DNA of 64,000 nt from an uncultured Clostridia bacterium (GTDB lineage: Bacteria > Bacillota > Clostridia > Oscillospirales > UBA644): contig CALWNV010000001.1 in assembly GCA_944382895.1 (NCBI GenBank), forward strand, positions 849 to 64,848, written 5' to 3'. Position 1 is the first letter of the stretch. Each line of letters begins with the position of its first letter. Position numbers and translations under genes: made by a program. Shown here piece after piece: positions 4,950-30,820 of this stretch. The notes under the pieces were generated by a model. The model was not told the DNA's origin and did not search any database. It saw nothing but the letters and a program-made list of their open reading frames with translations.

Positions 4950-5126
4950 AATATTTTTTTACTCACACAAGAATTACAGAAAAATTTTTATTTAATTTAT
5001 ATAAAACAAACCGATAGATAATCAATATATCTATAATGTCTATAATATATACCGACATATCCATTGTTGTCTGTCTTCATGATAAATTTTATAACTACTG
5101 ATTCCATCTTTTACAAATATTGAAAA

Positions 5127-10737: not shown

Positions 10738-12111
10738 GTGAACCGCAACGTGTTCAAAATGCGAAAAAGAGTCATTCTTGACTCAACGCAGATAATAGCT
10801 ATCGGATTTATTGTTCTGATTTTGTTCGGAGCAGTTCTTCTTTCTCTGCCTGTTTCTTCCGCCAACGGGGAATATACAAATTTTCTTTCATGTATTTTTA
10901 CTTCCACGTCTGCGTCATGCATAACGGGACTTGTAGTGGTGGATACCGTGACACACTGGAGTGTGTTCGGACAAATCGTTATTTTATTGCTTATTCAGAT
11001 AGGCGGATTAGGATTTATGTCCCTGGCGACTTTTTTTTCTTTTCTCATACGCAAAAATATTTCTTTTAAGGAGAGAATGAGAGCTGCACAATCATTCAGT
11101 CTTTTCGAATTCAAAGGTGCGATACGGATAGTAAAACATATATTTTTAGGAACCTTATGCTTTGAAGGAGCCGGAGCTGTCATTTTAAGTGTAAGATTTA
11201 TTCCGCATTTCGGAATAATCGACGGGATATGGAAAGGTATTTTTACTTCCGTTTCGGCTTTCTGCAACGCGGGCTTTGATCTTATGGGGAAATTTTCAGG
11301 AAAGTTCTCTTCCCTTACGGCGTTTTCCGACGATCTTGTCGTATGTATGACAGTAATGCTCCTTATCGTAATAGGAGGTCTCGGATTCATAGTTTGGGAA
11401 GAACTTTTCACGATAAGAAAATTTTCTAAATTTTCCTTATTTTCAAAACTGGCTATCATAACAACAGGTCTTCTCATATTATCCGGAGCCGTTTTGATTT
11501 TCATAACAGAAGTAACAAACCCGGAAACACTTAAGCCCATGTCTTTTAAAGGGCAGGTATTGTCCTCTCTCTTTCAGGCAATAACACCAAGGACAGCAGG
11601 ATTCAATACAATAGATCTTGCCGCCATGCGTGACGCCTCAAAAGTAATCATGGTGGTTCTCATGTTTATAGGAGCAAATTCCGGATCTACAGGCGGAGGA
11701 ATTAAAGTTTCAACCTTCTCAGTCATTGTTGTCGGTGTTTTATGCATTGCCCGGGGTAAAAAAGATGTCACGGCCTTTGAACGCAGAATATCGGAAGGAA
11801 CTGTTTTCCGCGCGTTCGCGCTTGTTATCATGGCCGCTGCCGTACTTATCCTCTGCTCCGTAATGATTTGTTTTTTACAGCCTGAGCTTTCTTATACAGA
11901 TGTAATATACGAATGCGTTTCAGCTTTTGGTACAGTAGGACTTACGCTGGGTATAACAACAGAACTTTCCGGGATTTCACAAATTATAATAATATTCCTG
12001 ATGTATTTCGGCAGAGTAGGACTTCTGACACTTTCGTTTGCAATATTCAAACGTCAGCAAAGATCTCTGAATAAACTGCAATATCCGGAAGGAAAAGTCA
12101 TAATAGGATAG
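10738..12111 (+). CDS. ktrB: Potassium uptake protein, TrkH/KtrB family membrane subunit
   Basis: Polytopic membrane protein with repeated pore-loop motifs (IGGLGF, CNAGFD, GSTGGGIK, FGTVGL). The start is ambiguous: GTG 10738, GTG 10750 or ATG 10759. Confidence 0.9.
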   Translation: MNRNVFKMRKRVILDSTQIIAIGFIVLILFGAVLLSLPVSSANGEYTNFLSCIFTSTSASCITGLVVVDTVTHWSVFGQIVILLLIQIGGLGFMSLATFFSFLIRKNISFKERMRAAQSFSLFEFKGAIRIVKHIFLGTLCFEGAGAVILSVRFIPHFGIIDGIWKGIFTSVSAFCNAGFDLMGKFSGKFSSLTAFSDDLVVCMTVMLLIVIGGLGFIVWEELFTIRKFSKFSLFSKLAIITTGLLILSGAVLIFITEVTNPETLKPMSFKGQVLSSLFQAITPRTAGFNTIDLAAMRDASKVIMVVLMFIGANSGSTGGGIKVSTFSVIVVGVLCIARGKKDVTAFERRISEGTVFRAFALVIMAAAVLILCSVMICFLQPELSYTDVIYECVSAFGTVGLTLGITTELSGISQIIIIFLMYFGRVGLLTLSFAIFKRQQRSLNKLQYPEGKVIIG

Positions 12112-12120
12112 GTGAAAAAA

Positions 12121-12771
12121 ATGAAATCTTTTCTCGTAATAGGTTTAGGAAGATTTGGCAAAAGCGTTGCTCTTACCCTCACTGCTCTCGGAAACGAAGT
12201 TTTAGCAGTAGATAAAAACCCTGAAATCGTCGAGGAAGTCGCATCTCAGGTCACTCACGCGCTTTCAGGAGAATGTCGGGACAAGCAAACACTGGAAAGC
12301 TTGGGAGTAAGGAATTTTGACTGCGTAATAGTGGCAATTTCGGAAAGTGTGGAATCAAGTATACTTATAACACTGATGTTGAAAGATCTCGGAGCAAAAT
12401 ATGTTATAAACAAAGCTGCCACAGAAATACATGCAAGGATACTCAGACAAGTGGGCGCCGACAAAATAATTTTTCCGGAAATGGATATGGGAACCAAACT
12501 TGCTCAAAGATTGTCTTCAGCCGGAATACTTGATTTTATAGAGCTTTCTGACAAATATTCCATTGTCGAAATACAAATGCCTTCATCATGGGTTGGGAAA
12601 ACATTGAGAGATCTTGATTTACGCGCGAACTACGGGATAAATGTAGTTGCTCTCAAAAACAATGAAAATCAGACCATCGACGTTTCTCCGAATCCAGACA
12701 AAGAATTTACAGAAAATGATGTTCTTGTCGTAATAGGCCTTAACTCCGATATTGCAAAGGTAACAAAGTGA
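12121..12771 (+). CDS. ktrA: Potassium uptake protein, TrkA/KtrA RCK-domain subunit
   Basis: Rossmann motif VIGLGRFG, plus TrkA-N and TrkA-C domains. RBS AGGTG lies 6 nt before the ATG at 12121 (the ORF track uses GTG 12112). Confidence 0.9.
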   Translation: MKSFLVIGLGRFGKSVALTLTALGNEVLAVDKNPEIVEEVASQVTHALSGECRDKQTLESLGVRNFDCVIVAISESVESSILITLMLKDLGAKYVINKAATEIHARILRQVGADKIIFPEMDMGTKLAQRLSSAGILDFIELSDKYSIVEIQMPSSWVGKTLRDLDLRANYGINVVALKNNENQTIDVSPNPDKEFTENDVLVVIGLNSDIAKVTK

Positions 12772-13499
12772 TCGCAGGGAAAATAACCGGACGGAAAGAC
12801 ATTCTCTTAAATGATGTCCTTGAAGCAAAAAAAGAGCCTTCGCAATCCGGATTTATAATCGAAGGCGCAAAATTTGTAGCAGATTGCTCTCCCGAACATA
12901 TTAAGCAGGTTTTCGTGACAGACGCAGAAAAATACTCTGTGATCGTATCAAAATTTGAAAAAGTATATGAAGTATCCTCCTCAGTCGCAAGCAAAATTTC
13001 ATCCGCGAAATCAGGACAGGAAGTTATTGCCCTTGCGGTAAAAAACAATCCCCCATGCCCGGAAAAACTTGTGATACTTGACCGTGTTCAGGACAGCGGG
13101 AATGTTGGGACCATAATACGAACCGCGTCGGCATTCGGTTTCGGAGTGATAGTTTCGGCAGATTCCGCCAACCCGTATTCAGTAAAAACAGCAAGAAGCT
13201 CCGCCGGGGCGATTTTATCTTGTTATGTACAAAAAAGTGATTTACCTCAAATAATCCCTGACCTGAAACGCAGAGGGGTTTATATATACTCGTCAGAGAT
13301 TGACCGGTCCGCGACTCTTTTGAAAAACATTTCTCGAAATAAAACTTCTTTCGCGGTAATTATAGGAAACGAAGGCTGCGGCGTAAGTAAAACCATATCA
13401 TCTTTTGCCGATGAAAAAATTTATATACCGATTGAAAAAGAAAACTCACTTAATGCATCAATAGCCGACGCAATAATAATGTACGAAACAAACTCATAA
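12768..13499 (+). CDS. TrmH/SpoU-family RNA 2'-O-methyltransferase
   Basis: SpoU motifs are present: DRVQDSGNVGTIIRTASAFG, IIGNEGCGVS, LNASIADAI. The GTG start overlaps the ktrA stop (GTGA). Confidence 0.8.
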   Translation: MIAGKITGRKDILLNDVLEAKKEPSQSGFIIEGAKFVADCSPEHIKQVFVTDAEKYSVIVSKFEKVYEVSSSVASKISSAKSGQEVIALAVKNNPPCPEKLVILDRVQDSGNVGTIIRTASAFGFGVIVSADSANPYSVKTARSSAGAILSCYVQKSDLPQIIPDLKRRGVYIYSSEIDRSATLLKNISRNKTSFAVIIGNEGCGVSKTISSFADEKIYIPIEKENSLNASIADAIIMYETNS

Positions 13500-14680: not shown

Positions 14681-16804
14681 ATGCCGAAAACATCAACAAC
14701 CAAGACAACGGCAAACAGAAAAAAAACTCTTGTAATAGTTGAGTCCCCGTCAAAAATCCGGACGATAAAAAAAGTTCTGGGCTCCAACTATGAAGTATTA
14801 TCCTCAAAAGGACATATCCGAGATCTTCCCGCCTCGAAACTCGGAGTTGACATACAACATGGTTTTACACCAGAATATGTTGTTCCTCGTAAAGACGGAA
14901 AAGCGGCACTGCTCAAAGAGCTGAAAAAAGAAGCGGAAAAAAGTAAAAACGTATATCTCGCAACTGACCCTGACAGAGAAGGGGAAGCCATTGCGTGGCA
15001 TCTGTCAACACTTCTTGGTCTCGATCCGGATACTGATATACGCGTATCTTTTGATGAAATCACGGAAAAAACCATTAAATCAAGGATAAAAGAACCTACA
15101 CACATTGATAAAAATCTGGTTTATTCGCAACAGGCACGCAGAGTTCTTGACAGGATCGTAGGTTATAAACTCAGCCCTTTTTTATGGAAAAAAGTCAAAA
15201 GAGGTCTTTCCGCAGGAAGAGTTCAATCTGTCGCCACACGTATGGTTGTAGACAGGGAGAGAGAAATAGAGGCGTTTGTTCCTCAGGAATTCTGGAACCT
15301 TGACGCGGTTTTGAAAAAAGGCAACAAAATATTTGTTGCAAGATTTTATGGAAATCCTAAAAAGAAAACTATAGAAAACAAACAACAGCTTGACCAGATT
15401 TTATCGGAAACAAACGGCGCGGAATTTATAATAGACAAAATCAGACGTCAGCAGAAAACAAAAATACCCAAACCGCCTTTTACGACCAGCTCATTACAAC
15501 AAGATGCGTCTGTAAGATTGAACATGCGTCCGCAAAAAACAATGAGTGTCGCACAAAGTCTTTATGAAGGTGTCGAAATACAGGGTAAAGGTCTTTCAGG
15601 TCTTATAACATATATGCGAACAGATAGCCTGCGGCTGTCCGACGAAGCGCGTTTTGCAGCCAAGGATTTCATACTCAAAAAATACGGAGAAGAATTTTAT
15701 CCCTCATCTCCACGTATTTTCAAAACAAAAAGTACCGCCCAGGACGCACATGAGGCGATTCGACCGACAGATGTAAACCTTACTCCCGAATCTGTCAAAA
15801 GCAGCCTCAGTTCAGATCAGTATCGGCTGTATAAACTTATCTGGGAAAGATTTGTAGCCAGTCAAATGGCTTCCGCAATTTATGACACGATCTCCGTAGA
15901 CGTAAAAGCAAATAATTGCATTTTCAAGGCCGGCGACTCAAAAATAACAGTAAAAGGGTTTACCGTCCTTTATAACTATGAAGATGAAACTGAAGAAAAT
16001 ACCGGAAACCTTCCTATGCTCGAATAAGTAGATAAGCCACAACTAACAGTTCTCAATTACCCTCATTAATTCACTCCGCCGCCGCCGAGATATACAGAAG
16101 CCTCCCTTATTAAAGCATTAGAAGAAAACGGGATAGGCAGACCTTCCACATACGCTCCGACTATAAGCACTATAATTGAACGTGACTATGTTGAAAAAAA
16201 AGACAAGATTCTCATCCCGACTCAGATGGGATTTATAACAACAGATCTTATGACTGAAAATTTCAAAGACATAGTAGACTTAAAATTCACGGCGGAGATG
16301 GAAGAAAAACTGGATAAAATCGAACATGGGGAAAAAACATATCTCAATGTTCTCGAGGACTTTTATTCCGGGTTTGAAAAATCCCTCAGGGAAGCAGAAA
16401 AAAACATGGAAAATGTCCATATAAATATTCCGGACGAGGTCAGCGATGTCACTTGTGATCTGTGTGGGGCAAAAATGGTATATAAAAACGGACGTTTCGG
16501 TAAATTTCTTGCCTGCCCCAATTTTCCGGCATGCAGAAACACGAAAGCCATTATAAATTACGCGGACGGTGCATGCCCGAAATGCGGAGCCCGGATCGTG
16601 ATACGCAGATCTCCGAAAGGGAAAACGTATTATGCATGTGAAAGACCTCGCGAGGAATGCGGTTTTATGTCTTGGGACGCACCGACAAAAGAGACCTGCC
16701 CTCAATGCGGTAAAACGCTTTTTAAGGGAATAAGCAGAGTTAAACATTGTCTGAATGAAAACTGCGGATATACGCAAAAGAAGAAAACAGATGAAAAAAG
16801 TTAA
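14681..16804 (+). pseudogene. topA: DNA topoisomerase I, a single 707-codon frame interrupted by in-frame TAA codons at 16025-16027 and 16067-16069
   Basis: Segment 14681-16024 has the TOPRIM domain (LVIVESPSK, DPDREGE). Segment 16070-16225 has [29 protein letters not shown]. Segment 16226-16804 has three Cys4 zinc ribbons. All segments share one frame (start positions equal 2 mod 3). Confidence 0.85.
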
Positions 16805-27962: not shown

Positions 27963-29262
27963 TATACTTTCTTCTAACGGATATGAGGCATATCTCGTCG
28001 GCGGATGCGTAAGAGATTTTTTCCTTAAAAGACCTTTTGCAGATGCGGACATATGCACATCTGCAACGCCAGAAGAAGTAAAAAAATGTTTTCCGGAGGG
28101 TAAAATTCTTGAAACAGGAATAAAACACGGAACCGTTACCCTTTTAATTTACGGGGAAACGTTTGAAATCACAACTTTCCGAAAAGAGGCAAATTATAAA
28201 GACAACAGACATCCGTCTTCCGTAAAATTTACAGAAGAACTTTCGGAAGACCTTTCTCGCCGAGATTTTACAATGAACGCAATCGCAATGAAAAACGGGG
28301 AAATCACCGACCCGTTTAACGGGATACAAGATATTGAAAATAAAACCATAAAAGCTGTCGGGGATCCGGATGAGCGCTTTACAGAAGACGCATTAAGAAT
28401 TCTTCGTGCGATACGCTTTTCTTCAACCTTGAACTTTTCCATAGAAAAACACACGGAAGACTCTATTTTTAAAAATAAAGAACTTCTTCTGAATATTTCC
28501 GCAGAGCGAATATCCTCGGAATTCAATAAATTACTTACAGGAGAAAACGCAGAAAAAGTCCTTTTACGTTATTCCTCCGTCATCGCGGTATTCATACCAG
28601 AAATACTTCCTACAATAGATTTTAACCAATATAATCCTTTTCACATCTACGATGTATATACACATACAGTAAAAGCGATTTCTGCGGCAGTAAACATACC
28701 TGAAGTCAGACTTGCGCTTTTTTTCCATGATATGGCGAAACCATCTTGTTTTACTCGTGACGAAGACGGAACTGGACATTTCAAAGGACATGCGGATGCA
28801 GGGGAAATCCTTGCGAAAAAAACTCTGACTCGACTCAAATATGATAATAAAACAATAAAAACTGTTTGTTTTTTGGTAAAAAACCATTATATGAAAATAA
28901 AAAGCGATAAAATTTTTATAAAAAAATTTTTGAAAAACTGTTCTGAGCAAAACTTTCGGTTTCTCCTTGAAGTAATACGCGCCGACAATCTGGCAAAAGC
29001 TAATTTTGCGAAAAAAAACCTTTCTTTGATTGACAAAACAAAAAAAGAACTGAAAGACATATTATCAAAAAATGAATGTTTTTCGCTTAAAACTCTCGCG
29101 GTCAAAGGTTCTGACATGGAAAATATAGGTATTACAGGTAAAAACATCGGCAAAGCCCTTGACTTTATACTTGATAAAGTTATTGAAGAAAAAGTTATAA
29201 ACAAAAAAGAAGCTATTCTTTCGAACCCGCTGTTAAATGAATTAACACAATTTCTTTCTTGA
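27928..29262 (+). CDS. cca: CCA-adding tRNA nucleotidyltransferase
   Basis: YLVGGCVRDFF, RRDFTMNA, and the HD-domain sequence FFHDMAKP. Confidence 0.9.
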   Translation: MTDFSVPKRITDILSSNGYEAYLVGGCVRDFFLKRPFADADICTSATPEEVKKCFPEGKILETGIKHGTVTLLIYGETFEITTFRKEANYKDNRHPSSVKFTEELSEDLSRRDFTMNAIAMKNGEITDPFNGIQDIENKTIKAVGDPDERFTEDALRILRAIRFSSTLNFSIEKHTEDSIFKNKELLLNISAERISSEFNKLLTGENAEKVLLRYSSVIAVFIPEILPTIDFNQYNPFHIYDVYTHTVKAISAAVNIPEVRLALFFHDMAKPSCFTRDEDGTGHFKGHADAGEILAKKTLTRLKYDNKTIKTVCFLVKNHYMKIKSDKIFIKKFLKNCSEQNFRFLLEVIRADNLAKANFAKKNLSLIDKTKKELKDILSKNECFSLKTLAVKGSDMENIGITGKNIGKALDFILDKVIEEKVINKKEAILSNPLLNELTQFLS

Positions 29263-29287
29263 CTTTTAACAGATAATATATTATAAT
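29259..29287 (+). promoter_or_regulatory. Sigma-A promoter upstream of the small membrane protein gene and rnpB
   Basis: TTGACT (29259-29264), 17-nt spacer, TATAAT (29282-29287). Confidence 0.55.
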
Positions 29288-29320
29288 ATTAGCATATCTC
29301 ATTTTGGTGGTGAAAATATA

Positions 29321-29689
29321 ATGAAACAAGGTACCGTATGGGTATTGACTTTCTCGCTTATACTTTTCGGAGTCTTGCTTGGATTCGGTCTTTATATGCC
29401 GGCAAACAGGGCAGGCCTTATCATTGCGGGAATAGTTTTCTTGGTTTTTGGAATCGGTGTCTCTCTTCCTGACATTATTCCTCTTATAAAAAAAGCAAAA
29501 CGTGCACATGACATAAAAACCGGAAAGATCGATCCCACAAAAAAGCTCTCTCACTATAAAGGCAGACGCAGAAGCGCAAGCCGCTCTTTTATCTACACTG
29601 GAGAAGACGAGGAAGCATACGAAAAACAAACTGAAATCGATGTTTCTGAAAATAACGAAACAGACGCTGAAACCGTTTCCGATACATAA
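29321..29689 (+). CDS. Hypothetical small membrane protein (2 TM helices, charged C-terminal tail)
   Basis: RBS GGTGGTGA lies before the ATG. Two clear hydrophobic helices are present. Confidence 0.55.
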   Translation: MKQGTVWVLTFSLILFGVLLGFGLYMPANRAGLIIAGIVFLVFGIGVSLPDIIPLIKKAKRAHDIKTGKIDPTKKLSHYKGRRRSASRSFIYTGEDEEAYEKQTEIDVSENNETDAETVSDT

Positions 29690-29695
29690 ATTTTT

Positions 29696-30043
29696 CTGCT
29701 TGTCGAGCAATCGCGAAAGAAAACCGAAAGGTCTCTTTTGAGGAAAGTCCGGGCTCCTATGGGCAAGAATAACGGATAACGTCCGCCGAAGGCAACTTCC
29801 GGGAAAGTGCAACAGAAAATTACCGCAGGCCTATGCCTGTAAGGATGAAAAGGCGAGGTAAGAGCTCACCGGGACTTTGGTAACAAAGTTCGCTGTGTAA
29901 ACCCTATTCGGAGCAATGCCGCATACAAGACAAGCCGAAAGGCAGCGCCGCCCATCGCGTCTTAAAGGCAGCTGGAGATATACGGTAACGTATATTCGAG
30001 ACAGATGATTGCATAAAACAGAACCCGGCTTACGGACAAACAG
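29696..30043 (+). ncRNA. rnpB: RNase P RNA (bacterial)
   Basis: Universal GAGGAAAGTCCGGGCTCC, AGTGCAACAGAAA, AGATGATTGC and ACAGAACCCGGCTTAC blocks are present. A P1 helix forms between CTGCTTGTC (29696-29704) and GACAAACAG (30035-30043). Confidence 0.9.
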
Positions 30044-30096
30044 ATTTTTTAACAAAGAACGTATTCGCAAATATACTTTCTTGCGAATCAAACAAA

Positions 30097-30137
30097 AGAA
30101 ACCGAGGCAAAGGATTTTCCTTTTTGCCTCGGTTTCT
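30097..30137. terminator. Bidirectional rho-independent terminator (rnpB on +, V-ATPase operon on -)
   Basis: Stem AGAAACCGAGGCAAAGGA / TCCTTTTTGCCTCGGTTTCT with T-rich tracts on both strands. A second small hairpin (ATTCGCAA/TTGCGAAT) lies at 30063-30088. Confidence 0.75.
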
Positions 30138-30172
30138 TGTTTTACTGATTTCGGGAACAAGTCTACAAATTA

Positions 30173-30820
30173 TTACGCTTTTTCAGAAGGTCGCTCAAGA
30201 ACCATTTCTTTCACTTTCATCAGGCGGCTCGTATTACTTCTTTCATCCTCATCAAGTTTTGCGACAATATATTTTATTGTTTCTTCCTGTTCCGGGATCA
30301 TAACATGCTCAAGAGCGTTGACTCTGCGGCGAGTCTTTTCTATTTCCTCTGCCAACAACATTACCGCTTTTTCTGTTTGCGCAAGCTCAAGAAGCTTGGG
30401 CATAACAGAGGCAAGCCCGCCGACAGCTCTGTCGAGTTCGCCGGAAGTAAACGCAAGACCGTAAGGATATATATCGTTTTTTTCTCCTGAAAGCTTAGGC
30501 GTAAACACAGGAACATTCACGCTCATAATATTTTTTGTCACTGCGTCAACAAAAACTTCCTGTTTAGGATAGCATAAAGCCTGCTCAAGAGCTTGGACAC
30601 TCATTGCTGCTCCGGCAATTGAAAAACTTGCGTTTATTCCGGCAAGAAGGTCTTCAATCTCTGCGCGAAGAAGCCGGTTTTTACGTACAAGATCAAGAAA
30701 CTGTTTGACCATCTCATCCCTTTTATCTTTCAAAAGTTTATGACCGCGTCTTGCAGTTTTATTCCTTTTTTTAAGCTTGGTCAATTCCATTCTCGTAGGA
30801 TTGACCTTTATCATCGCCAT
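30173..30820 (-). CDS. ntpD: V-type ATP synthase subunit D
   Basis: MAMIKVNPTRMELTKLKKR follows RBS GGAGG (the ORF track start at 30862 is upstream of the RBS). Confidence 0.88.
   Translation of the reverse strand: MAMIKVNPTRMELTKLKKRNKTARRGHKLLKDKRDEMVKQFLDLVRKNRLLRAEIEDLLAGINASFSIAGAAMSVQALEQALCYPKQEVFVDAVTKNIMSVNVPVFTPKLSGEKNDIYPYGLAFTSGELDRAVGGLASVMPKLLELAQTEKAVMLLAEEIEKTRRRVNALEHVMIPEQEETIKYIVAKLDEDERSNTSRLMKVKEMVLERPSEKA

Follow-up and report, generated by a model that had tools for sequence, protein, structure and literature searches.

In Bacillus subtilis and Escherichia coli, topoisomerase I (TopA) is normally essential, or its loss needs compensatory mutations. A topA copy with two in-frame TAA codons, located in the 64,000-nt stretch of uncultured Clostridia DNA that was analyzed here (the window), raises the question of whether the gene is dead, is read through its stops, or was never broken in the cell. 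A sequence-only reading of the window had described two ORFs of 448 and 192 aa in the same frame, whose straight translation gives 707 codons with two internal TAA codons, and had pointed out that the segment after the second stop contains no in-frame ATG, GTG, or TTG and that the string at the first stop, TAAGTAGATAAG, carries stops in all three frames. All of these observations were confirmed (Table 1). The same reading regarded the two TAA codons as the only defects of an otherwise intact gene, which did not hold: compared with the wild type of the same strain, the window carries 11 substitutions between 16025 and 16072 (the patch). Its guess that TAA-GTA-GAT arose from GAA-GGA-GAT through G>T changes, on the other hand, proved to be exactly right in light of the conspecific contigs.

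topA in the window and in its relatives

Pfam searches with the topA fragments of the window identified a Toprim domain (PF01751, 8e-23), Top1 zinc ribbons (PF01396 Zn_ribbon_Top1, 7e-23), and the Topoisom_bac core (PF01131), the last of which was matched in two parts with values of 1e-83 and 2e-33, the cut falling between profile positions 299 and 317 of 411. The catalytic residue Tyr311, in the motif GLITYMRTDS, is retained in the 448-aa fragment and is invariant in an alignment of 20 sequences. With its Toprim domain, Topoisom_bac core, Top1 zinc ribbons, and catalytic Tyr, the window gene is that of a type IA topoisomerase.

Table 1. Coordinates of topA, its fragments, and the substituted patch in the window
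Feature	Position	Strand	Remarks
topA (type IA DNA topoisomerase I)	14681..16804	+	straight-through translation of 707 codons
N-terminal ORF fragment, 448 aa	14681..16027	+	Toprim and PF01131 profile positions 2-299 of 411
First in-frame TAA	16025..16027	+	wild-type codon GAA (Glu449)
Second in-frame TAA	16067..16069	+	wild-type codon AAA (Lys463)
Conserved topA core segment	16070..16225	+	PF01131 profile positions 317-410; no in-frame start codon
C-terminal ORF fragment, 192 aa	16226..16804	+	zinc ribbons
Private patch, 11 substitutions in 48 nt	16025..16072	+	no indels
Patch, G>T	16025, 16029, 16051		
Patch, A>T	16050, 16057, 16063, 16066, 16067		
Patch, G>C	16061		
Patch, A>C	16062		
Patch, T>C	16072		
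(CCG)4 run encoding PPPP	16076..16087		4 nt 3' of the patch; minus strand (CGG)4, GGC-rich

A search with the read-through protein retrieved an intact 707-aa protein with 99% identity (P0001) and a relative with 84% identity (P0002), both of which read NLPMLEEGDKPQLTELKYEQKFTPPPP where the window has stops and missense changes. topA is intact and encodes 707 aa in all conspecific assemblies, and intact 707-aa TopA variants occur on at least 58 contigs. In a protein-guided scan, the nearest species representative was an uncultured Clostridiales metagenome-assembled genome (MAG) with 85% identity, the others being more distant; all topA relatives found were MAGs or metagenome contigs. The window gene resembles Bacillota TopA from the dprA-topA-trmFO neighborhood in domain architecture, 707-aa length, Tyr motif, and gene order, and no biological difference from that family was found, the corrupted patch being confined to the copy on this contig. 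At the 3' side, the called start of TrmFO (16755) overlaps the end of topA by 50 nt (16755-16804) in all conspecific assemblies. In the 84%-identical relative, the TrmFO call loses 12 residues and the overlap is only 14 nt, so that the true start may lie further downstream than annotated.

A functional topA expressed by ochre suppression or by programmed readthrough of both TAA codons would agree with the frame being kept across both stops and with a conserved downstream segment that has no start codon of its own. However, the two positions hold the sense codons GAA and AAA in 16 conspecific assemblies and in P0002, and nothing at the site is conserved or programmed. A search for a suppressor tRNA found no tRNA of any kind within the 64-kb window, and a search for a recoding element gave no Rfam match at the stop site of topA. 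TAAG and TAAT are efficient terminator contexts in bacteria, and these are the very contexts of the two stops. Furthermore, more of the long ORFs in the window end in TAA than in any other stop (24 of 48, topA included), just as the sequence-only reading had taken it for an ordinary terminator; reassignment of the TAA codon was rejected on this usage, and no other window gene is interrupted. The read-through product would still be damaged, because it would retain five missense changes (G450V, E457V, K459N, E461P, and Q462H) in addition to the sites of E449* and K463* and a silent change at F464 (TTT>TTC), and Q462 is invariant. F464 and T465 are likewise invariant in the 20-member family alignment, whose consensus reads LPxLxEGDxLxLxELxxEQKFT. 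The data effectively exclude both programmed readthrough and codon reassignment, and a functional topA that depends on suppression or readthrough of both stops is scarcely credible.

Privacy and spectrum of the patch

Conspecific contigs across the entire window were gathered by exact-protein look-ups of neighboring genes, and these relatives covered 64,000 of the 64,000 window positions at least once and 63,974 of them at least twice. All 11 patch positions carry the wild-type bases in 17 of the 17 covering loci, which come from 16 distinct assemblies in Logan, ENA, and NCBI; the wild-type codons in these 16 same-species assemblies are GAA GGA ... GAG CTC AAA TAC GAA CAA AAA TTT. The alignment to close relatives that had been proposed for finding the original sense codons gave GAA at 16025 and AAA at 16067. 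Across the whole 64 kb, only 12 positions are private to the window, namely the 11 in the patch and position 13468. Two conspecific contigs, L009 (7,335 nt) and L013 (5,699 nt), show no difference from the window except in the patch, and the comparison with L009 yields 11 differences in 48 nt and none in the other 7,287 nt compared. This clustering is far beyond chance.

Outside the patch, the scaffolds L018, L020, L039, L040, and L052 from SAMEA6814571, SAMEA6814573, and SAMEA6814579, all of one study, share 99.99-100% identity with the window, and wild-type topA was recovered from two of these three samples (L003 and L009). The 448-aa (P0135) and 192-aa (P0121) products co-occur on record on one 65,373-nt contig only, which is evidently where the window comes from; P0121 is also called on L001, a contig that starts at window position 16224. 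A degenerate DNA pattern covering both the wild-type and the mutant haplotypes had no match in GTDB species representatives or JGI metagenomes.

The spectrum of the patch was compared with that of natural polymorphism, defined as the differences between the window and its conspecific relatives outside the patch. Whereas natural polymorphism comprised 143 transitions and 72 transversions, 10 of the 11 patch changes are transversions and one is a transition (Fisher p = 2e-4). All 10 transversions replace purines of the plus strand (p ~0.017 given 67% purines), and T is the new base in 8 of the 11 changes. The changes become denser toward the 3' end of the patch, numbering two in its first half of 24 nt and nine in its second half. 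No error-free run within the patch is longer than 20 nt, so the path through it must derive from one molecule or read family. Beyond the second stop, the DNA of the conserved core segment equals the wild type except for the silent change at 16072. The patch is thus private to the contig, isolated, and unnatural in its spectrum. Where a coding stretch is rich in A, miscalls toward T easily convert GAA and AAA to TAA, and this explains the three-frame stop string without design.

An ordinary old pseudogene, or targeted hypermutation as in the variable region of a diversity-generating retroelement, might be suspected from a substitution cluster confined to a short stretch. However, the stops are common to no relative and the rest of the gene shows no decay. 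Relatives sharing the same stops together with downstream decay, which the sequence-only reading had named as the sign of an old pseudogene, did not appear, and the gene is therefore not an old pseudogene; this explanation was also rejected on the grounds that the allele is private, with no other differences over 7.3 kb and one other private base in 64 kb. Nor are the changes adenine-specific, as 4 of the 11 are at G and 1 is at T. Because the window lacks a second copy of the patch region that could serve as template repeat, and the Pfam annotations of the genes called in the region include no reverse transcriptase, a diversity-generating retroelement was rejected as well. The probability that either of these processes produced the patch is negligible. 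Ectopic gene conversion was discarded because no donor occurs in the window, where no other match exceeds 10-14 nt, and quasi-palindrome template switching because the sole inverted repeat is a pair of 79%-complementary 19-mers that lie 77 nt apart and overlap one mutated base.

The only private base outside the patch, at 13468, is a C>A change that converts GCC (Ala) to GAC (Asp) near the C-terminus of a SpoU-family RNA methylase gene (12768-13499), and C is present in 7 of the 7 covering relatives. This change is a transversion as well and could reflect another miscall in that assembly.

Possible origins of the patch

A sequence of this kind would also be left in a deposited contig by a real null allele of topA that is private and very recent, that had become fixed or predominant in one sample, and that a single complex multi-nucleotide event had generated. 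Such an event might be error-prone bypass of clustered plus-strand purines that were abasic or otherwise damaged, in which insertion of A opposite the lesion would lead to T; the cells would survive the loss only transiently or would compensate for it by gyrase changes or by a second type IA enzyme. The lack of indels and the perfect flanks are as expected of an allele that has had no time to decay, and the strand-asymmetric purine>T/C spectrum appears to resemble the outcome of the A-rule at abasic sites, since copying of a depurinated template gives a purine>T/C pattern. Yet 11 substitutions per 48 nt from one in vivo event would be extraordinary, the identical strain in other samples is wild type, and assembly would require that the allele had majority status in its sample. 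The gene is one whose loss is usually lethal or in need of compensation, and the orphaning of an invariant 52-residue core segment would make the allele a true null. Moreover, the spectrum could be produced equally well in vitro, from a damaged template and PCR; it fits the copying of a depurinated template, and if that copying took place in vitro, the result would again be an artifact. The allele, if real, would amount to complete TopA loss, as in the classical E. coli topA nulls with compensatory mutations, although unlike those mutants it is known from a contig sequence alone. Taking both sides into account, we consider a private null allele from a single event unlikely, and the fuller scenario, in which the 11-substitution haplotype is real and a fresh topA null came to dominate one gut-community sample through a single strand-asymmetric event, rather improbable.

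The patch is most likely a sequencing, assembly, or consensus artifact in one contig, which is itself probably from a MAG. We favor this explanation because the allele is private, same-strain contigs from other samples carry GAA and AAA, and the spectrum is not natural; the full pattern of 11 substitutions points the same way. We infer both the technical origin of the patch and the technical step that made it. The sequence of the 48-nt stretch would have rested on a single erroneous read, read family, or contig tip, or would have been corrupted during polishing or consensus calling, and such corruption could leave 11 base miscalls, mostly from purine to T, with two in-frame TAA codons among the consequences. 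The single contig concerned would come from an uncultured, gut-type species of Clostridia and probably belongs to a MAG, and a path through one molecule would be consistent with a low-coverage bridge or a contig tip. According to their contig names, conspecific contigs are often at 3-6x coverage, and the error density in the patch rises in one direction without indels, like a degraded read tail. Against an artifact, it may be said that the assembler must have preferred the erroneous path or had only this path, and a path that stems from a single read or PCR-duplicate family requires very low local coverage. In addition, no dense substitution patch like this one was found inside approximately 40 other conspecific contigs and loci that were examined; what they showed was limited to errors at contig tips (L003), a deletion of 26 nt (L049), and natural variation rich in transitions. 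Among the four options listed by the sequence-only reading, a consensus or assembly error is now strongly favored and suppression or readthrough as a maintained feature finds no support, while a recent null or minority allele is left in the lesser place given above.

Spurious pseudogenes with internal stops that result from the assembler, the platform, or low coverage are well documented (Cooley & Wright, 2024, PMC11017572). The topA break is similar to these in that internal stops affect a conserved gene in one assembly, are absent from near-identical genomes, and occur in a low-coverage metagenomic species; it differs in being a dense, purine>T-biased patch of 11 substitutions rather than a single miscall or a homopolymer indel. 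Old Illumina chemistry has been reported to cause cycle-dependent miscalling, first of G>T and then of A>T (Kircher et al., 2009, PMC2745764), and GGC motifs trigger sequence-specific errors on the Illumina platform (Nakamura et al., 2011, PMC3141275). Like such miscalls, the errors in the patch are consecutive, directional, and clustered, with G>T coming first and A>T later. In contrast, the accumulation of T described by Kircher et al. is a trait of a chemistry no longer in use and should also yield C>T, of which the patch has none, so the resemblance of the patch to cycle-dependent, T-biased miscalling is only an analogy. A GGC motif does lie within approximately 10 nt upstream in the read direction, as the minus strand carries (CGG)4 at 16087-16076 and the first miscall would be at 16072. 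However, the signature of dephasing, in which the miscalled base equals one of the preceding one or two bases, was seen in 4 of 11 changes on the minus strand (4.3 expected) and in 2 of 11 on the plus strand. Because this signature is not enriched, the patch is not attributed to GGC-triggered dephasing although the motif is present.

Several other gene breaks and end errors were encountered in the conspecific assemblies; two of them, in L003 and P0136, affect topA itself and speak for an artifact. L003 (ENA scaffold ONAT22-1_SAMEA6814571 scaffold_3435) ends within topA at window position 16129, and its final 27 nt (11423-11449) contain three miscalls, which correspond to window positions 16103, 16116, and 16119. 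These tip errors create a false stop and hence a spurious 479-aa 'TopA' (P0019) that now represents a protein cluster. P0136, from an ENA contig of 2,423 nt, is a 506-aa TopA fragment ending in ...TIIELSLIHI, in which LSLIHI is the translated Nextera transposase adapter CTGTCTCTTATACACATCT, reflecting adapter contamination at the contig end. In L049 (metaSPAdes assembly ERZ26858765, NODE_2274, coverage 5.8), a private 26-nt deletion at approximately 15784, corresponding to window positions 28209-28234, breaks the gene of the CCA-adding enzyme into 121-aa and 329-aa pieces, again a gene break in a single assembly. In L053 (MEGAHIT assembly ERZ17292900, k87_4552086; 11846-12943), the YchF GTPase, whose gene lies upstream of the left end of the window, is called as 230 aa and 129 aa, while it has 365 aa in all other assemblies.

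Two further regions of the window were noted. The AT-rich intergenic stretch between an aldose epimerase gene and a 639-aa gene (4976-5116) is the most strain-variable stretch seen; L050 has 32 private differences there, including a 13-nt indel, which look like natural divergence. A bacterial RNase P class A RNA is encoded at window positions 29695-30048 (+) with an Rfam score of 265 bits. Because the ORFs at 29213-29812 (-) and 30009-30464 (+) overlap this RNA, they are unlikely to be genes.

Meaning of the broken gene

The topA break is not a biological feature, and its value is that of a data-quality flag. In the deposited contig of 65,373 nt (NCBI and ENA), 48 nt of an essential gene are corrupted, and this patch splits topA into called products of 448 aa and 192 aa that have now been propagated in protein databases. 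Comparison with same-strain contigs of other assemblies can tell such artifacts from real pseudogenes without access to the reads. Should the haplotype prove real after all, it would represent an unusual one-step clustered mutation that knocks out topoisomerase I, and would point to a Clostridia lineage able to live transiently, or with compensation, without this enzyme. The best explanation is that topA of this species is an ordinary, intact, and conserved gene, and neither recoding nor suppression nor the loss of an essential gene calls for an explanation.
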